This document shows, piece by piece, positions 3,715 to 10,997 of a DNA stretch of 39,468 bases. The notes below the pieces were generated by a model, which ran no database searches, was not told where the DNA came from, and saw only the letters and a program-made list of their open reading frames with translations. Source of the stretch: Candidatus Binatia bacterium. Its GTDB lineage: Bacteria; Desulfobacterota; Binatia; UBA1149; CAITLU01. The stretch's first letter is position 1, and each line of letters opens with the position of its first letter. The DNA lies in assembly GCA_046261745.1 (NCBI GenBank), contig JBHEOD010000004.1, positions 2,528 through 41,995 on the forward strand. The letters run 5' to 3'. A program made the position numbers and the translations under genes.

Positions 3715-4710
3715 ATGCAGACGGAAACACAGTACCGTTCTTTCGGCGCCCAGGCCCTTCACTATTTCCATCGTCCCCATGACGAGGTTGCGACCTCGCC
3801 GGTCGGCGGCGCGGCGGCGTGGCGCGGCCCCGAGGTGGCCGCACGCGACGACTGGATCGTGCGTTTCCCCGCTTCGGAAATCGACGAACTCGAGTCGGCT
3901 GCACGGCGCTGTTCGGATACACCGCTCGAATTTCTCGGACGCAACGACTTCGAATTGCCCACTCTCGCGCCGCGCATCGCCGCGTGGGCGGATACGTTTC
4001 GCAGCGGCCTCGGGCTCTTGCTGCTGCGCGGCCTTCCGGTCGAGCGCTGGGGAGAGGAACTCTCGTCGGTCGTGTTCTGGGGACTCGGACACCACCTGGG
4101 CGTGCCGGGCGGACAGAATCCGCAGGAAGAGCTGCTCGGCCACGTTCGCGACTACGGCGAGGATGCCGCCAGCCCGTTCGTACGCAAGTACCGCACGGCC
4201 GCGAACATCGCGTTCCACTGCGACCTCGCCGATATCGTCGGCCTGCTGTGCCTGCGCCCCGCGAAATCGGGCGGGGCAAGTCGCATCGTGAGTTCGGTTG
4301 CCGTCCACGACGAATTGCTGCGACAGCGGCCCGATCTCGCCCAAAGGCTCTACGAACCGTTCCTGCTCGATACGCGTGACGAATCGCGCGAGAGCCGCAT
4401 GCCCTGGGTACCCGTCCAGCCGTGTTGCTACAGCGAGGGCCGCCTTCGAACGTTCTACCACAGCGACTATTTCCGATCCGTGGAGCGCCACGCCGCGGCG
4501 CCGCGCTTTACGGAGCAAGAACGCGAACTACTCGACCTCTACGAGGAAATTGCCTCGTCTCCCGCGCTCTATCTCGACATGAGCTTCGAGCCCGGCGACG
4601 TGCAACTGATTTCCAACCACACCGTGCTGCACGCCCGCACGCAATACGAGGACTGGCCGGAACGGTCGCGTCGCCGGCATTTGCTCCGGCTTTGGCTCTC
4701 GCTGGAGTAA
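3715..4710 (+). CDS. TauD/TfdA family Fe(II)/2-oxoglutarate dioxygenase
   Basis: HxD facial-triad motif (AFHCD), distal His in NHTVLHARTQYED, and RRRHLLRLW at the C-terminus. Confidence 0.88.
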   Translation: MQTETQYRSFGAQALHYFHRPHDEVATSPVGGAAAWRGPEVAARDDWIVRFPASEIDELESAARRCSDTPLEFLGRNDFELPTLAPRIAAWADTFRSGLGLLLLRGLPVERWGEELSSVVFWGLGHHLGVPGGQNPQEELLGHVRDYGEDAASPFVRKYRTAANIAFHCDLADIVGLLCLRPAKSGGASRIVSSVAVHDELLRQRPDLAQRLYEPFLLDTRDESRESRMPWVPVQPCCYSEGRLRTFYHSDYFRSVERHAAAPRFTEQERELLDLYEEIASSPALYLDMSFEPGDVQLISNHTVLHARTQYEDWPERSRRRHLLRLWLSLE

Positions 4711-4729
4711 CCCGGGTTAAGGCCGGGCG

Positions 4730-5515
4730 TCAGCCGAACCGTCCTTCGATGTAATCCGCCGTGCGCTTGTCGCGCGGCGCAATGAAGAGATCTTCGGTGC
4801 GCCGGTGCTCGACGATTTCGCCAAGCAGCATGTAGACGCATTCGTCGCTGACACGGCGGGCCTGGGCCATGTTGTGGGTGACGATCACGATTGTGAACGT
4901 ACCGGCGAGCGCACGCATGAGCTCCTCGATGGCGGCGGTCGCGTCGGGGTCGAGCGTGGAGCAGGGCTCGTCCATCAGCAGGACCGACGGCTTGAGCGGT
5001 AGCAGTCGCGCGATGCAGAGTTTCTGCTGGGCCTCGAGCTGCAATTGGGTCGCCTTCAGGTCGAGGCGATCCTTCAGCGAGTCCCACAGCCGCACGGCCT
5101 TCAGCGCCGACTCGAGCTCGGCTTCCTCCGCGTCCCGGCTGCGCTGCCGCGACGGCGTGTGCAGGCGATAGCCGTAGAGCACGTTGTCGCGCACCGAGAT
5201 CGGCAGCGGATTGGGGCGCTGGAACACCATGCCCACCTGCTTGCGCAATTCCACCAGGTCGACGCCTTCGTCGTAGATGTTGTGGCCGTGGATGCGCACT
5301 TCGCCGGCCGTCGAGACGTAGTCGTGGCGCTCGTTGATGCGGTTGAAGCAGCGCAGCAGCGTCGACTTGCCGCAGCCCGACGGGCCGATCAATGCGGTGA
5401 TGCGACCATCGGTGATCTCCAGGTCGACGCCGCGCACGGCTTCGAACTTGCCGTAAAACAGCCGCAGGCCACGCGTGATGACGGCCGCCGTCCGGTTCTC
5501 GTCGAGCGTGGTCAT
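4730..5515 (-). CDS. pstB: Phosphate ABC transporter ATP-binding protein (downstream copy; degenerate signature motif)
   Basis: Real start is ATG 5515, overlapping the upstream stop. Motifs GPSGCGKS, VFQRPNP, LMDEPCSTLDP, VTHNMAQA, YIEGRFG; signature reads LQLEAQQK. Confidence 0.92.
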   Translation of the reverse strand: MTTLDENRTAAVITRGLRLFYGKFEAVRGVDLEITDGRITALIGPSGCGKSTLLRCFNRINERHDYVSTAGEVRIHGHNIYDEGVDLVELRKQVGMVFQRPNPLPISVRDNVLYGYRLHTPSRQRSRDAEEAELESALKAVRLWDSLKDRLDLKATQLQLEAQQKLCIARLLPLKPSVLLMDEPCSTLDPDATAAIEELMRALAGTFTIVIVTHNMAQARRVSDECVYMLLGEIVEHRRTEDLFIAPRDKRTADYIEGRFG

Positions 5516-6282
5516 CAGCCGAACAACCCCTGCACATACTGGTACGTGCGGGCATCCTGGGTGTTGCGCGAGTAGATGGTCTCGGTGGCGCCCACTTCGA
5601 TGAGACGACCGTCGAGGAAGAGGGCCGTGCGGTCGCCGAGGCGCCTGGCCTGCAGCACCAGGTTTGTCACCAGCACGACGGTCATCGTCGAGCGCAGCTC
5701 CTTGATGACTTCCTCGATGCGCATTGTGGTGACCGGGTCGACGGCGATCGAGAATTCGTCGAGGCAGAGGATCTCGGGCTCGAGCGACAGTGCACGCGCG
5801 ATCGTGAGGCGCTGCTGCTGGCCGCCGGACAGGCGGGTGCCGAGGTCTCCAAGCCGGTCCTTCACTTCGTCGAACAGCGCTGCCTGCCTCAGGCATCGTT
5901 CGACGAGATCGTCGAGCAGCGAGCGGCTGCGGATCCCGGCCATGCGCGGCGCGAAGGCGACATTGTCGTAGATCGACATCGGCAGGCCGACCGGCAGCGG
6001 AAACACGACGCCGATGCGGCGCCGCAGGGAGGCGACGTCGCGGATCGACATGACGTCTTCCCCGTCGATGCGGATGCATCCCTCCACCTTCATGCCGGGG
6101 ACCATGTCCGACATGCGGTTGATGCATTGCAGCAGCGTGGTCTTGCCGGCACCGGCCGGGCCGATGACGGCCAGGATCTCTCCCTCGAGCACGTCCAGCG
6201 ATACGCCGTCGAGCACCACGTGCTCGCCGTAGCGTACGCGCAGGTCGCGGATCTCGATCTTGGCGCGGGAGGTAGTCACCAT
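5515..6282 (-). CDS. pstB: Phosphate ABC transporter ATP-binding protein (upstream copy; degenerate Q-loop and H-loop)
   Basis: Start ATG 6282 overlaps the pstA stop. Motifs GPAGAGKT, LSGGQQQRL, CLDEFSIAVDP; Q-loop reads VFPLP and H-loop reads VTNL. Confidence 0.9.
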   Translation of the reverse strand: MVTTSRAKIEIRDLRVRYGEHVVLDGVSLDVLEGEILAVIGPAGAGKTTLLQCINRMSDMVPGMKVEGCIRIDGEDVMSIRDVASLRRRIGVVFPLPVGLPMSIYDNVAFAPRMAGIRSRSLLDDLVERCLRQAALFDEVKDRLGDLGTRLSGGQQQRLTIARALSLEPEILCLDEFSIAVDPVTTMRIEEVIKELRSTMTVVLVTNLVLQARRLGDRTALFLDGRLIEVGATETIYSRNTQDARTYQYVQGLFG

Positions 6283-7172
6283 TTTCTCCGCGCGCGCAGA
6301 TAGCTTCGCAACAGGATGGAGGAGAGGTTCACGCTCATGACCAGCACCACCAGCACCAGCGCGGTGGCGTAGGGCATCGCCGGCGGTACGTTGGGAACCT
6401 GGGTGGAAAGGGTGAACAGGTGCATCGACAGGGCCATGCACTGGTCGTGCACCGAATTCGGAAGGAAGGGCAGGTAGAAGGCCGCGCCCGTGAACATGAT
6501 CGGGGCGGTCTCGCCGGCTGCACGCGAGACCTGAAGGATCACGCCGGTGAGGATCCCCTGGATCGAGTTCGGAAGCACGACGTGGCGGATGGTCTGCCAG
6601 CGTGATGCGCCAAGCACCCAGCAGGCTTCCCGGAACGACATCGGAACCGCCGACAGCGCCTCCTTGGTGCTTGCGATGATCACCGGCAAGGTCATCACGG
6701 CGAGTGTCAGCGAAGCGGCCAGGATGCTGGTGCCGAGTTGCAGGAAAAGCACGAACGCGCCGACGCCGAACAGCGCGTGCACGATGCTCGGAACGCCGGC
6801 CAGGTTCACGATGGCGAGATGGATGATGCGCGTCATCCAGTTCTCCGGCGCGTACTCGTTGAGATAGATGGCGGCGAGGATGCCGATGGGCGCGGCGATC
6901 ATCAGGGACACGCCGACGAGCCAGAGGGTCCCGACGATGGTCGGGAAGATGCCGCCCGCGGTCATGCCGGCGGCCGGCGAGTCGAGCAGGAACGAGAGGC
7001 TCAGCGCCGGGGCGCCCTTCACGATGAGCAGCCCGAGGATCGCGGTGAGCGGAAGCACGAGCAGCACCGTCATCATCGCGAGGACCGCGCGCGCGACGCT
7101 TTCCGTGTGCCGGCCGGCCCGGGTTCGCTCCGTTGTGGTGAACGGGGAGGTGGCCTGGAATGGCTCACTCAT
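6276..7172 (-). CDS. pstA: Phosphate ABC transporter permease PstA
   Basis: ATG 7172 overlaps the pstC stop. YLNEYA, NLAGVPSIV, EAA-type loop SFREACWVLGASRWQTI, RAAGETAPI. Confidence 0.93.
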   Translation of the reverse strand: MSEPFQATSPFTTTERTRAGRHTESVARAVLAMMTVLLVLPLTAILGLLIVKGAPALSLSFLLDSPAAGMTAGGIFPTIVGTLWLVGVSLMIAAPIGILAAIYLNEYAPENWMTRIIHLAIVNLAGVPSIVHALFGVGAFVLFLQLGTSILAASLTLAVMTLPVIIASTKEALSAVPMSFREACWVLGASRWQTIRHVVLPNSIQGILTGVILQVSRAAGETAPIMFTGAAFYLPFLPNSVHDQCMALSMHLFTLSTQVPNVPPAMPYATALVLVVLVMSVNLSSILLRSYLRARRKW

Positions 7173-8101
7173 CGCGAGGCCTTGCGCCCGCGAACCATCA
7201 GGTCGGCGGTGAGGTTGACGATGAAGGTAAGCGTGAACAGCAGCACGCCGATGGCGAACAGGGCCTGGTAGTGGTCGCTGCCGCGTGCGGTCTCGCCGAG
7301 CTCGGCGGCGATGGTCGCGGTCAGCGTGCGCACGGAGTCGAGCGGGCTGTGCGGAATCTGCACCGCGTGACCGGTGGCCATCAGCACGGCGATGGTCTCC
7401 CCGATGGCGCGGCCGACACCGAGCAGCACGGCGGCCAGCAGACCGTTTCGAGCGGCCGGCAGCAGCACCTTCGTGATCGTCTGCCAGCGCGAGGCGCCCA
7501 TCGCGAGGGAGGCTTCCCGGTAGGAATCGGGAACCGCCTTGAGCGCGTCTTCCCCGATCGAGACGATGATCGGCACGCTCATCAGCCCGAGGATGAGTCC
7601 GCCGTTGAGCACGTTGAGCCCGATCGGCGCGTCGAACATCGCGATGATCATCGGGTTGACCATGGCCAGTCCGATGAAGCCCCACACGACGGAGGGGATG
7701 GCCGCGAGGAGCTCGATAACGACCTTGAGCAGTTCCTTGCGGCGGCCCGTGGTGAACTCGGACACGAAGATGGCGGCACCGAGGCCGAACGGCACGGCGA
7801 TCGCCATCGCGAGGGCCGTGACGCTGACGGTGCCGGCAATCAGCGCCAGCGTTCCGTAGCGCTTCTGGCCGACCGAGGTAGGCACCCACTCGGTGCTGAA
7901 CAGGAACTGTCCGAAGTCGAGCCGATTCACGATGAATTCGGCTCCCGAACCCACCACGAACACGAAGATCGCGAACACGAAAAAGATCGCGCTGAATCCG
8001 CATGCACGGATGAGCAACTCGACGAGTCGCTCGATGGTCACGGAGGCGAGGCTGCGCCCCCGGCGGACCGGGGGATGCCTTGTCACGGACGGTGATGTCA
8101 T
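7169..8101 (-). CDS. pstC: Phosphate ABC transporter permease PstC
   Basis: ELLAAIPSVVWG, EDALKAVP..REASLAMGASRWQT, GRAIGETIAV. Confidence 0.93.
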   Translation of the reverse strand: MTSPSVTRHPPVRRGRSLASVTIERLVELLIRACGFSAIFFVFAIFVFVVGSGAEFIVNRLDFGQFLFSTEWVPTSVGQKRYGTLALIAGTVSVTALAMAIAVPFGLGAAIFVSEFTTGRRKELLKVVIELLAAIPSVVWGFIGLAMVNPMIIAMFDAPIGLNVLNGGLILGLMSVPIIVSIGEDALKAVPDSYREASLAMGASRWQTITKVLLPAARNGLLAAVLLGVGRAIGETIAVLMATGHAVQIPHSPLDSVRTLTATIAAELGETARGSDHYQALFAIGVLLFTLTFIVNLTADLMVRGRKASR

Positions 8102-8235
8102 GGCCGGTGAATTCTCAGTCCGATGTCGATTGGGCGGATTGGGTGTTTCGATGTCGCGCTCGTCGGTTCATGGTCTGTTGCCCCGGTCGTCGCTGGATCG
8201 TCGCGCTTACTCGTCCCGGCTGGCGCTCTCGTGCT

Positions 8236-9102
8236 TCAAAGCGGGACGAACCCGTTCTCGCCGACGATTTTCTGGCCCGCCGGCGACAGGATCCAGTCGA
8301 GATAGGTTTTCGTCTCGCCCTGGGGCTCGCCGAGCGTGTACATGAAAAGGTTGCGCGAAAGCGGGTACTCGCCGCTCTTGGCGGTCTCGAGGGTCGGGGC
8401 CACGCAGGGAGTGGTAGTGTCCTTGGCCAGGCAGACCTGATGGACCTCGTGGGTGGCGTAGCCCATGCCGCTGTAGCCGATCGCGCACGGTGTCTTGGAG
8501 ACGAGATCGACGACATCCTTGCTGCCCTGCATGTCGCGCGATCCGAGTTTGAAGTCGCTCGTCGCACCGAGCACCGCTTCACGGAAATACTCGTATGTGC
8601 CCGAGTTCGACTGCCGGCTGACGCGGATGATCTTCTGGTCGGCGCAGCCCGGGACCTCCACGCCAACCGAGGTCCAGGTGTCGCAGGTTCCCTTCTCCCC
8701 GTAGATGCATGCGAGGTTTTCCATTGTGAGAGTCTTGGCGGGGTTGGCGGCGTGCACGTAGACCACGATGGCGTCTCGCGCCACCTTGAACTCGACCGCT
8801 TCCTTGCCGGTGTGGCTCTTGACCTGCTCGCGCTCGTCGGCGTGAATGTCGCGGCTTGAATTGGCGATGTCGACGTTGCCGTTGATCAGCGCGGCGATGC
8901 CGGTGCCGCTTCCGCCGCCGCTAACTGCTACGGCGACGGTCGGCTTCACGGTACGATAGGTTTCCGCCCAGGCCTGCGCGACGTTGACCAGGGTGTCGGA
9001 GCCCTTGTTCTGAAGAAGAACGCGGTCTCCGCTGCCGCGCGAGCACGCAGAGAGCATCGCCAACGCAGCCGCTGTCATGATTAGGGTGGTTCTCGAGCTC
9101 AT
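8236..9102 (-). CDS. pstS: Phosphate ABC transporter substrate-binding lipoprotein
   Basis: ATG 9102 with GGAG upstream; lipobox-like MLSAC; KGSDT, GGGSGTG, SRQSNSGT, YPLSRNLFMY. Confidence 0.92.
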   Translation of the reverse strand: MSSRTTLIMTAAALAMLSACSRGSGDRVLLQNKGSDTLVNVAQAWAETYRTVKPTVAVAVSGGGSGTGIAALINGNVDIANSSRDIHADEREQVKSHTGKEAVEFKVARDAIVVYVHAANPAKTLTMENLACIYGEKGTCDTWTSVGVEVPGCADQKIIRVSRQSNSGTYEYFREAVLGATSDFKLGSRDMQGSKDVVDLVSKTPCAIGYSGMGYATHEVHQVCLAKDTTTPCVAPTLETAKSGEYPLSRNLFMYTLGEPQGETKTYLDWILSPAGQKIVGENGFVPL

Positions 9103-9177
9103 TTCCAGTTTTCTCCGAATCGGCACGTCGTCATCGCCAAGGCCGGCGGGTTGGCTTCATCGAGACACGCGCGCCGT

Positions 9178-10284
9178 TCAGTTTGCCGTGTCCAGGCTCG
9201 AGACGGTGCCGTGCAGGCTCTGGATCAGCGTCGTGATGCGTTCGAGAAGGTCGTCGAAGAGGCCCGAAAGCGCTTCGGCCCCGGCATCCGCCAGTGCGTC
9301 GGGCATGTCCCAGTCCACCACCACCGTCCGGAAGCCGAGCGTCTGCTGGGAGACCGCGCGCGCGGCCTCGCGGTCCACCGCGACGATGATGCGGTAATTG
9401 CCGAGCGGACCCATCGTGGCCAGCGGCGAGGCCTCCCGGTCGGAGAGGTTGATGCCGCGCTTGGCCAGGAAGTCGAGGAGCGGGGCGTCGGGATGTCCGG
9501 GGGCGGTCGTCGCGGCGGCGAACGTGAACTGGTCGCCCGCGACCGTACTCGCGATGGCCTCGGCGATGGACGCCAGGGACGAGGTGCCCGACGACAGGAA
9601 CAGGATGGTGGCCGTGCCCTTCGACTGATGCTTCACACTCTCGCCGGTGAGCATGTAGTAGACCTCTTCGCAGATGTTCACGGCCTGGTCGGCCACGCGC
9701 TCGTAGCGGTTGGCCACCGACAACAGCGAGAACAGCCTGGAGAGTTCGTCCGAACTGACCGGGATCTCCGCCACGAGGTTCTGGTAGATGTCGTGGTGAA
9801 GGGCGTTGGCCGTTGCCTCGAGCGCGATCGTCCGCCTGGCGAGATCGAGATCCTCGTCGAGAAAGGAGCGAACAGCCTGCCGCATCATGTCGACCGCCAC
9901 TCCAGCTATCTTCTCGAAACTTTCGAATTTGTTGACTTTTTCGGTCTTGGCCAAAAGGATGGCTTGGCGGTTGATGCTCTCGGCGTAGTCTCCGACCCGC
10001 TCGAGCTCGGAGACGATCTTGGCCACGGAGTGCACGAAGCGGAGGTGGGTGGCCACCGGGATGTGACGGACGATGAACTCGACGCACATCGCGTCGATCA
10101 TGCTCTCGAGGTCGTCCACCCGGGAGTCGCGCAAAATGGCGGCGTACGCGAGCTTGGTGTCGCCGGCGGTGAGCGCGCGCACCGAGTCCTCCAGCCCGCG
10201 AAGGGCAAGATCGGCCATCTCACGAACGCGATCCCGGATGCGGTGGATGTCGTTCTGGAGCTTTTCTTCCAGGTGCGAGGTCAC
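9178..10284 (-). CDS. phoU: PhoU fused to a C-terminal degenerate ArsC/LMW-PTP-like domain
   Basis: The first ~215 aa carry two PhoU repeats (ELERVGDYA; YERVADQAVNICEEV). The C-terminal ~150 aa follow the LMW-PTP/ArsC pattern (ILFLSSGTSSLASIAEA ... RGINLS ... DWDMPDA). Confidence 0.88.
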   Translation of the reverse strand: MTSHLEEKLQNDIHRIRDRVREMADLALRGLEDSVRALTAGDTKLAYAAILRDSRVDDLESMIDAMCVEFIVRHIPVATHLRFVHSVAKIVSELERVGDYAESINRQAILLAKTEKVNKFESFEKIAGVAVDMMRQAVRSFLDEDLDLARRTIALEATANALHHDIYQNLVAEIPVSSDELSRLFSLLSVANRYERVADQAVNICEEVYYMLTGESVKHQSKGTATILFLSSGTSSLASIAEAIASTVAGDQFTFAAATTAPGHPDAPLLDFLAKRGINLSDREASPLATMGPLGNYRIIVAVDREAARAVSQQTLGFRTVVVDWDMPDALADAGAEALSGLFDDLLERITTLIQSLHGTVSSLDTAN

Positions 10285-10348
10285 GCCGCGAAGTCCTTGT
10301 TGTCGGCGAAATATGGGGGAATGCCCGGTGCCGACGAAGCCGCGGGTC

Positions 10349-10375
10349 TAACGCCCTGCTGACATCAAAGCAACC
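10349..10375 (-). promoter_or_regulatory. Possible Pho-box-like 11 bp-phased direct repeats upstream of phoU
   Basis: On the minus strand, GGTTG, TGTCA and CGTTA units start exactly 11 nt apart (plus-strand CAACC 10371, TGACA 10360, TAACG 10349). Only one unit matches well. Confidence 0.3.
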
Positions 10376-10459
10376 AGCCTCGGCGCAGTTACGCAGCCCC
10401 CTTTGACCCCCGTCGCACACGCGGCCCGAACGGGCGTTGGCAGAGAACGATGCTCCGTG

Positions 10460-10473
10460 TAGAACGCGTTCCA
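10460..10473. promoter_or_regulatory. KstR-type operator TnnAACnnGTTnnA
   Basis: TAGAACGCGTTCCA matches the KstR consensus at every defined position and ends 41 nt before the ATG of the sterol side-chain operon. Confidence 0.65.
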
Positions 10474-10514
10474 CTCTGAACGCGGTCACCGGCCGCCCAA
10501 GGAATCGCGCAAAC

Positions 10515-10997
10515 ATGAGCCAGGACAAGTTGAGGCACTACCAGGGGGTCCTCTCGGCGGTGCATACCCTCGAGTACCCGTACACGCGCTCGGTAGGAAC
10601 GGTGATCGGCACCTTCCTGGCGGGCCTTCGAGACGGCCGCATCCTCGGAACCCGGACACCGTCCGGCGACGTGCTGGTGCCGCCGAGCGAGTTCGATCCG
10701 GCCACCGCCGCCACGCTCACCGAGATGTGCGACGTGTCGGACACCGGTACGGTCACCACCTGGAGCTGGGTGGCCGAACCGCGAGCAAAGCATCCGCTGC
10801 AAACGCCGTTTGCGTGGGCGCTGATCCGCCTCGACGGCGCCGCAACCGCCTTGCTTCATGTCGTGGACGTCGCCGACGAGGCGTCGATGAAGACGGGAAT
10901 GCGCGTGAAGGCCAGGTGGCGGGCCGAGCGCAAGGGCATGATCACCGACATCGAGTGTTTCGAAGCCGCCGATGCCGGCTCGGGAGCAAAGTCATGA
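10515..10997 (+). CDS. DUF35/OB-fold acyl-CoA-binding protein lacking Zn-ribbon cysteines (Rv3521 N-half-like)
   Basis: YTRSVG, FLAGLRDGRILG, GTVTTWSWV, PFAWALIRLDGA, GMRVKARW...ITDI. Confidence 0.82.
   Translation: MSQDKLRHYQGVLSAVHTLEYPYTRSVGTVIGTFLAGLRDGRILGTRTPSGDVLVPPSEFDPATAATLTEMCDVSDTGTVTTWSWVAEPRAKHPLQTPFAWALIRLDGAATALLHVVDVADEASMKTGMRVKARWRAERKGMITDIECFEAADAGSGAKS

Follow-up and report, generated by a model that had tools for sequence, protein, structure and literature searches.

The stretch analysed here, 39,468 nucleotides of contig JBHEOD010000004.1 (positions 2,528 to 41,995, forward strand) from assembly GCA_046261745.1 of a Candidatus Binatia bacterium and hereafter called the window, carries a six-gene cassette of the Pst phosphate transport type, phoU(ArsC-like)-pstS-pstC-pstA-pstB1-pstB2, whose members all lie on the minus strand between 4730 and 10284, as defined by open reading frames (ORFs) and family models. 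The original prediction, made from the letters of this DNA, had placed here a phoU-pstSCA-pstBB' operon with two pseudo-enzyme features, and both the gene order and the two features were confirmed at that place. Read in the direction of the genes, the region comprises:

10285–10436, no strand assigned: intergenic region and presumed promoter, separating the phoU fusion from a divergent gene
9178–10284, minus strand: phoU fusion of 368 amino acids, PhoU joined to a domain with the fold of arsenate reductase (ArsC) and low-molecular-weight protein tyrosine phosphatase (LMW-PTP); TIGR02135, PF01895, LMWPc and models
8236–9126, minus strand: pstS, given as the longest ORF, with a likely start at the ATG at 9102; lipobox LSAC; TIGR02136
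7169–8101, minus strand: pstC, permease; TIGR02138
6276–7172, minus strand: pstA, permease, its ATG overlapping the pstC stop (ATGA); TIGR00974
5515–6282, minus strand: pstB1, degenerate nucleotide-binding subunit by motif comparison; TIGR00972 as best model
4730–5515, minus strand: pstB2, catalytically complete nucleotide-binding subunit by motif comparison, signature LQLEA; TIGR00972 as best model

All six reading frames of this variant operon are intact, and the G+C content is even over the region (0.64–0.66). Stop and start codons overlap at the pstC/pstA, pstA/pstB1 and pstB1/pstB2 junctions, a pattern expected for co-translated subunits, and the GTG start of the phoU fusion agrees with the N-termini of its homologues. 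The PhoU part (residues 8–216) scores above the equivalog cut-off of TIGR02135 (162.5 versus 130.25 bits) and contains two PF01895 stretches, the two PhoU repeats that form a full-length PhoU domain. PstS (TIGR02136, the PstS family; 228.9 versus 206.6 bits), PstC (TIGR02138; 284.1 versus 196.45 bits) and PstA (TIGR00974; 265.4 versus 193.45 bits) also lie above their cut-offs, and these three subunits are, by their family matches, ordinary. TIGR00972 is the best model for both PstB copies, yet their scores of 288.4 and 310.7 bits remain under its cut-off of 343.2.

The motif states of the PstB copies were read by alignment to the solved PstB chain 9k3x, with which PstB1 and PstB2 align over their full length (216 and 243 bits, respectively). 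In PstB1, proline replaces the Q-loop glutamine (VFPLP versus VFQKP in 9k3x) and asparagine replaces the H-loop histidine (VTN versus VTH); Walker A (GPAGAGKT, with its lysine), Walker B (LDEF, with Asp-Glu) and the signature LSGGQQQRL are intact. PstB2 has the signature LQLEA instead of LSGGQ, and its Walker A, Q-loop, Walker B and H-loop are all intact. In the dimer of an ATP-binding cassette (ABC) transporter, either ATP site is shared between the two subunits, one contributing its Walker side and its partner the signature, so that all defects of the cassette fall in one composite site. This degenerate site combines the Q-loop and H-loop of PstB1 with the signature of PstB2, and the fully canonical site combines Walker A and B, Q-loop and H-loop of PstB2 with the LSGGQ of PstB1. 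Rather than two identical PstB subunits, the cassette thus has two different nucleotide-binding domains with all substitutions in one composite site; they are paralogues, each of its own lineage, 38% identical to each other and 46% and 48% identical to the other PstB of the genome. The motor is predicted from these motifs to be an obligate PstB1/PstB2 heterodimer rather than a PstB homodimer.

The same pattern recurs in relatives. Among loci taken from genomes, 66/66 first copies have proline at the position of the Q-loop glutamine and asparagine at that of the H-loop histidine and keep LSGGQ and LDEF, and LSGGQ is found in 0/64 second copies, of which those of L029, L036, L037, L048 and L080 are partly unreadable owing to frame breaks or masked bases. 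In metagenomes, LSGGQ is kept, DEF is present and asparagine stands at the histidine position in 81/81 PstB1 rows; the Q-loop glutamine and the histidine are kept in 67/67 PstB2 rows, and the six commonest forms of the PstB2 signature, covering 63 of these 67 rows, are all different from LSGGQ. The asymmetric pstBB' pair with a dead ATP site that had been proposed is therefore upheld by the motif alignment and by its recurrence. The mean column identity across phyla is 75% for PstB1, 80% for PstB2 and 48% for the C-terminal domain of the PhoU fusion (C-domain); the values for the two PstB copies indicate purifying selection and not decay, and the same substitutions in every relative examined cannot well be due to chance or decay. 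On a quick maximum-likelihood tree, in which the wrong-frame row can_L197 (branch length 10) is to be disregarded, PstB2 formed one clade with a support of 100 in the Shimodaira–Hasegawa-like approximate likelihood ratio test, and all PstB1 lay beyond a branch with a support of 100 and a length of 0.94, on whose other side were canonical PstB, PstB2 and the third PstB-like copy of the locus L148, described below. PstB1 scored two changes instead of one on this tree, owing to the row can_L197. Judged from this topology, each paralogue looks like a single old lineage.

The second departure is the phoU fusion, which consists of a six-helix bundle (residues ~1–213), a flexible linker (219–223) and an ArsC/LMW-PTP-fold domain (~226–358). 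The last 154 residues match the Pfam family LMWPc (PF01451) weakly (E 9.8e-4, 19.8 bits, under the gathering cut-off of 23.2) and match an ArsC chain at E 1.1e-3; of 78 relatives, 75 give an LMWPc match at E ≤ 1e-3, with 5.1e-17 as the lowest E-value. A model of the C-domain built with an alignment of these relatives reached a predicted local distance difference test score (pLDDT) of 84.6 and a predicted template modelling score (pTM) of 0.80, and its best Foldseek matches were the thioredoxin-coupled arsenate reductases 1rxe, 1jl3 and 1lk0 (template modelling (TM) score 0.72–0.87, probability 1.00), with LMW tyrosine and arginine phosphatases next in rank. The model of the full-length fusion had a pLDDT above 90 in the helical bundle and below 50 in the linker, with a pTM of 0.62. 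The P-loop of the window's C-domain, SSGTSSLAS, is without the catalytic cysteine, the asparagine and the arginine. At P-loop position 1, the site of the nucleophilic cysteine, the relatives have aspartate (63), serine (7), glycine (5), glutamate (2) or cysteine (1), so that the nucleophile is absent in 77/78; the P-loop arginine is kept in 49/78 and lost in 29/78, including the window's protein. From its sequence and its modelled structure, the C-domain is predicted to be a non-catalytic pseudo-enzyme with the ArsC/LMW-phosphatase fold. One relative, L085:967–1434, is the only one of the 78 with a complete C-x5-R loop (CDKNDCRS), and its C-domain may still be active or may be a relic of the ancestral state. 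Co-folding of PstB1, PstB2 and the C-domain, run without controls, gave a score of 0.00 (mark 0.32), which weighs neither for nor against a contact between them.

Whether the two features occur together was followed in sets of loci selected for the one or the other and in unselected genomes. The fusion-selected set consists of the best 80 loci of 504 relatives in species-representative genomes, and in 64/64 of its loci with enough contig the order phoU fusion-pstS-pstC-pstA precedes a pair of pstB genes; the remaining 16 loci reach the contig end too early, 14 without pstB and two with one pstB. The carriers belong to Binatia/"Deltaproteobacteria", Verrucomicrobiota, Acidobacteriota, Myxococcota, KSB1, Calditrichaceae, Planctomycetaceae, Lentisphaerae and others. 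In the PstB1-selected set, 80 loci kept from a metagenome scan, PstB2 adjoins PstB1 in 73 loci, and the other seven stop at the contig end. Upstream, 39 of these loci have the full fusion, three a C-domain cut by the contig edge, 37 no room, and one (L148) no fusion despite 3.3 kb of room, which means that the fusion or its C-domain is present in 42/43 loci with room. The unselected sample comprised 301 genomes from the phylum of the window; seven of them gave PstB1-type matches (400–484 bits), with a gap to canonical PstB (at most 292 bits), and in 7/7 of these the C-domain is encoded on the same strand of that contig, at a distance of ~3.3 kb. No genome with only one of the two features was found among the 150 C-domain matches listed for this sample, beyond which there are 176 weaker ones; nine other long-frame LMWPc matches in the sample are without a PhoU domain. 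In a second phylum, where 17 candidates per genome were scored, 2/151 genomes have a PstB1-type protein, and in both of them the contig that carries it also carries the fusion. The co-occurrence of the fusion with a degenerate PstB pair, which had been put forward as a check, is thus strongly borne out in all three kinds of set.

The arrangement itself varies in some loci. An alternative order, pstS-phoU fusion-pstC-pstA-pstB1-pstB2, is found in L108 (G202:C170), L140, L169, L184 and L187, with weaker C-domain scores. L186:190–8700 contains tandem cassettes, in which pstB1-pstB2 and a PstS-like gene are followed by a complete phoU fusion-pstSCA-pstB1-pstB2. In L101 (G083:C55:24853–26371) and L107 (G045:C2), whose genomes belong to one genus, a stand-alone LMWPc-like gene without a PhoU domain lies immediately upstream of pstS-pstC, and this may be an unfused relative of the cassette arrangement.

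Given the recurrence of both features, it is reasonable to suggest that the cassette is probably a conserved variant of the Pst importer that has one catalytic site and its own PhoU with a pseudo-enzyme module. Several observations weigh against this reading. PstB1 retains the catalytic glutamate of Walker B, so that residual hydrolysis at the degenerate site is possible; the variability of the C-domain P-loop, with the arginine lost in more than a third of the relatives and in the window's own protein, speaks against a conserved anion-binding role; the low-confidence linker and the pTM of the full-length fusion model leave the mutual orientation of its two domains undefined; and the 176 weaker C-domain matches could include a weakly matching fusion from a genome that lacks PstB1. 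Furthermore, L148 combines the order pstS-pstC-pstA-pstB1-pstB2 and the usual motifs with a plain PhoU of 217 amino acids and has no fusion upstream of pstS, where a divergent peptidase gene is found. After its pstB2 (L148:8744–11157) come a permease-like gene of 283 amino acids, a third PstB-like gene with altered motifs of its own (VFRKP, LSIGQ and VTN) and the plain PhoU. Downstream of pstB2, L145 and L167 look like L148 and probably also have the same PstBB' with a plain PhoU, and a plain PhoU directly follows pstB2 in L129:2148–2731, L150:1602–2249 and L180:2023–2673, whose upstream parts lie beyond the contig. These loci indicate that the C-domain is dispensable in some lineages, and from L148 it follows that the link between PstBB' and the fusion is not obligatory and that the pair can work with an unfused PhoU. 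Of the co-evolved signalling architecture suggested at the outset, the joint occurrence of the two features is upheld, a contact between the dead domain and the dead site is putative, and the pair can do without the fusion.

Since the genes lie in one operon, their co-occurrence may be simple linkage by descent, in which case both dead parts, the ATP site and the phosphatase domain, would have arisen once in an ancestral operon and been co-inherited only as neighbours, without coupling. We regard this as a serious but rather unlikely explanation. It would account for the constant location of both features within ~3.3 kb in one operon, for the L148-type loci that retain PstBB' with a plain PhoU, and for a C-domain that is far less conserved than the PstB pair in mean column identity. 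It accounts less well for the retention of the fusion in several phylum-level groups and also under another gene order (L108, L140 and L187), which suggests that selection retains the domain in nearly all places where the pair is found.

If the cassette is a variant importer with one catalytic site, its working could be outlined by analogy. As in heterodimeric ABC transporters with one degenerate site, ATP would be hydrolysed only at the site formed by the PstB2 Walker side and the PstB1 signature. The degenerate site would likely bind ATP, given that the Walker A lysine and the Walker B Asp-Glu of PstB1 are kept, and could do so without turnover, serving as a hinge or regulatory site that holds the dimer. 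The fusion PhoU might be the transporter's own regulator, docking on the two unlike PstB subunits in the way that PhoU of E. coli docks on PstB, and the pseudo-enzyme domain could add a non-catalytic binding or sensing surface for a putative partner or ligand. A bolder extension, which we offer tentatively and consider unlikely, is that the degenerate site and the dead ArsC-like domain form one cytoplasmic sensing unit, in which a permanently asymmetric motor presents a single dock for one PhoU and the domain reads phosphate, arsenate or a phosphorylated partner (e.g. a Pho kinase), thereby gating import or Pho signalling. If true, the cassette would encode a type I ABC importer that is asymmetric by nature and has the long-sought signalling contact between PhoU and PstB hard-wired into it.

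A more specific role for the C-domain is that of a cytoplasmic oxyanion sensor, whose remnant ArsC P-loop would bind phosphate or arsenate without converting it and shut the importer when the anion is abundant, by trans-inhibition via PhoU. The closest structures are indeed those of ArsC, the arsenate reductase of this fold, and the N-x-C-R-S of the P-loop is mostly kept (N in 65, C in 62, R in 49 and S in 65 of 78), the nucleophile alone being lost; but the negatively charged aspartate at the nucleophile position in 63/78, the loss of the arginine in 29/78 and the window's SSGTSSLAS, which has no binding residue at all, make this role distinctly unlikely. That the C-domain is still an enzyme, with aspartate or serine as nucleophile in place of cysteine, is very improbable: the full C-x5-R motif of L085 and the widely kept W and DP-loop residues would fit such an activity, but the residue at position 1 can be D, S, G or E and many relatives have lost the arginine, changes that a conserved catalytic mechanism would not tolerate.

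The genome of the window also has a complete canonical phoB-phoR-pstSCAB-phoU locus on another contig, C214, with the following features:

C214:6108–6776: canonical phoB
C214:6782–8575: canonical phoR
C214: canonical pstS, long pstC, pstA and a single pstB with all motifs canonical
C214:15509–16171: canonical plain phoU

The canonical pstC lies in an unusually long open frame (C214:10114–12702, 862 amino acids) with the PstC-like part at its end. With this complete locus present, the window's operon is a second Pst system. It had been stated earlier that no phoBR is present in the window; this is true for the window, and no PhoB- or PhoR-like match was found on its contig, C219, but the statement is misleading because phoBR lies on C214. 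As judged by family models, the variant operon encodes a complete second phosphate ABC importer of the genome, and phosphate transport itself is inferred from the equivalog matches of PstS, PstC and PstA and from the genome G303, the source of locus L059, in which the cassette is the sole PstB/PhoU detected. For G303, whose completeness is not stated, neither a canonical PstB at E ≤ 1e-40 nor a second PhoU at E ≤ 1e-10 was found, indicating that the cassette can be the sole Pst system. A reading of the operon as a duplicate of the canonical one in decay is scarcely credible and was rejected: both PstB copies score under the NCBIfam equivalog cut-off and a canonical operon is present in the same genome, but none of the six frames is broken, in G303 no PstB/PhoU other than that of the cassette was detected, and the conservation data, with the same replacement residues fixed across phyla and a column identity of 75–80%, contradict it.

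A promoter and terminator scan of 4500–10600 found no sigma-70-like site and one terminator-like site, inside pstA, which is fewer than in shuffled sequences (mean 3.2). Among the sequencing runs listed as containing this DNA there was none of RNA, and those of DNA had a small share. A CTAAC-N6-CTAAC repeat (GCTAACCGAA..CTAAC) lies upstream of both phoB and pstS at the canonical locus (C214:6025–6040 and 8950–8965); it has three sites genome-wide versus ~2.2 expected, two of them at this locus, and may be the Pho box of this organism. In the region upstream of the variant operon (10285–10436) the repeat CTAACCGAA..CTAAC is absent, even allowing three mismatches, and the Pho-box evidence is too weak for any conclusion on how this operon is regulated.

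PstS has six cysteines besides the lipobox cysteine, for which disulfides had been suggested. The lipobox cysteine is present in 77/77 PstS relatives, and the six others form three pairs whose members are always jointly present or absent: 140/148 in 8/77, 161/214 in 18/77 and 232/241 in 8/77. This co-variation fits three disulfides, which would be confined to the clade of the window and a small number of others; as the pairs occur in a minority of relatives, the predicted disulfides would be a lineage trait outside the definition of the cassette.

The way in which PhoU and PhoR sense the state of the Pst transporter is still an open question in the field, and a fixed asymmetric ATPase pair together with a PhoU bearing an added module could offer a defined, testable geometry for PhoU docking. 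The cassette would also place a degenerate ATP site, a feature studied almost only in exporters, in a binding-protein-dependent importer. Its carriers are uncultured soil, sediment and water bacteria of many phylum-level groups, and as the sole Pst system detected in at least one genome it bears on the control of phosphate uptake in such organisms. Public names such as "phosphate signaling complex protein PhoU" and "phosphate transport system protein" hide the cassette proteins, so that current annotation conceals a distinct system. No literature on a PhoU-phosphatase (PhoU + LMWPc) fusion or a degenerate PstB pair was found in a search that covered sources other than subscription journals and supplements, and the six-gene cassette appears to be previously undescribed.

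Compared with the C-domain, ArsC and LMW-PTP (1jl3, 1rxe and 1lk0; PF01451) have the same four-stranded alpha/beta fold, as seen from the TM scores and from the LMWPc matches of 75/78 relatives; unlike them, the C-domain is without the nucleophilic cysteine in 77/78, without the P-loop arginine in 29/78, and fused to PhoU. In STYX-type pseudophosphatases, which have the eukaryotic dual-specificity fold, the catalytic cysteine of a phosphatase is naturally replaced and the protein binds instead of catalysing; their resemblance to the C-domain is conceptual only.

The closest well-studied transporter is the PstSCAB-PhoU system of E. coli (PstB 9k3x/9k3s, PMC12976172), with whose PstB both cassette copies align over their full length and with which the PhoU part shares its equivalog. 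Unlike the E. coli system, the cassette has two diverged PstB paralogues (38% identity) instead of a homodimer, one degenerate composite ATP site, and phoU first, not last, in the operon and with an extra ArsC-fold domain. Contacts of PhoU with PstB and PhoR are cited in the structure paper (PMC12976172), in its introduction and its list of references, and in abstracts of other papers; the words "asymmetr" and "degenerate" do not occur in the structure paper. The tandem pstB genes of Firmicutes (pstB1/pstB2 of E. faecalis and PstBA/PstBB of B. subtilis) carry identical canonical motifs according to the passages available from PMC12096839 and PMC11466899. They resemble the cassette in being an adjacent pstB pair in one pst operon, with a presumed heterodimer, and differ from it in having no degenerate site and no PhoU fusion. 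Cyanobacteria also have pstB/pstB' pairs.

With respect to the motor, the nearest counterparts are the heterodimeric ABC transporters with one degenerate site, such as TM287/288, BmrCD, TAP and CFTR, in which, as reviewed in PMC7756269, the substitutions likewise fall in one composite site, to which one subunit lends its Walker side and its partner the signature motif, and the other site is fully canonical. Unlike the cassette, these are exporters and not binding-protein-dependent importers, and the passages on importers in the same source describe no type I importer with a degenerate site. Loss of the Walker B glutamate is given as a hallmark of degenerate-site ABC transporters in the abstract of PMC7544095, whereas the cassette keeps this glutamate and loses the Q-loop glutamine, the H-loop histidine and LSGGQ.

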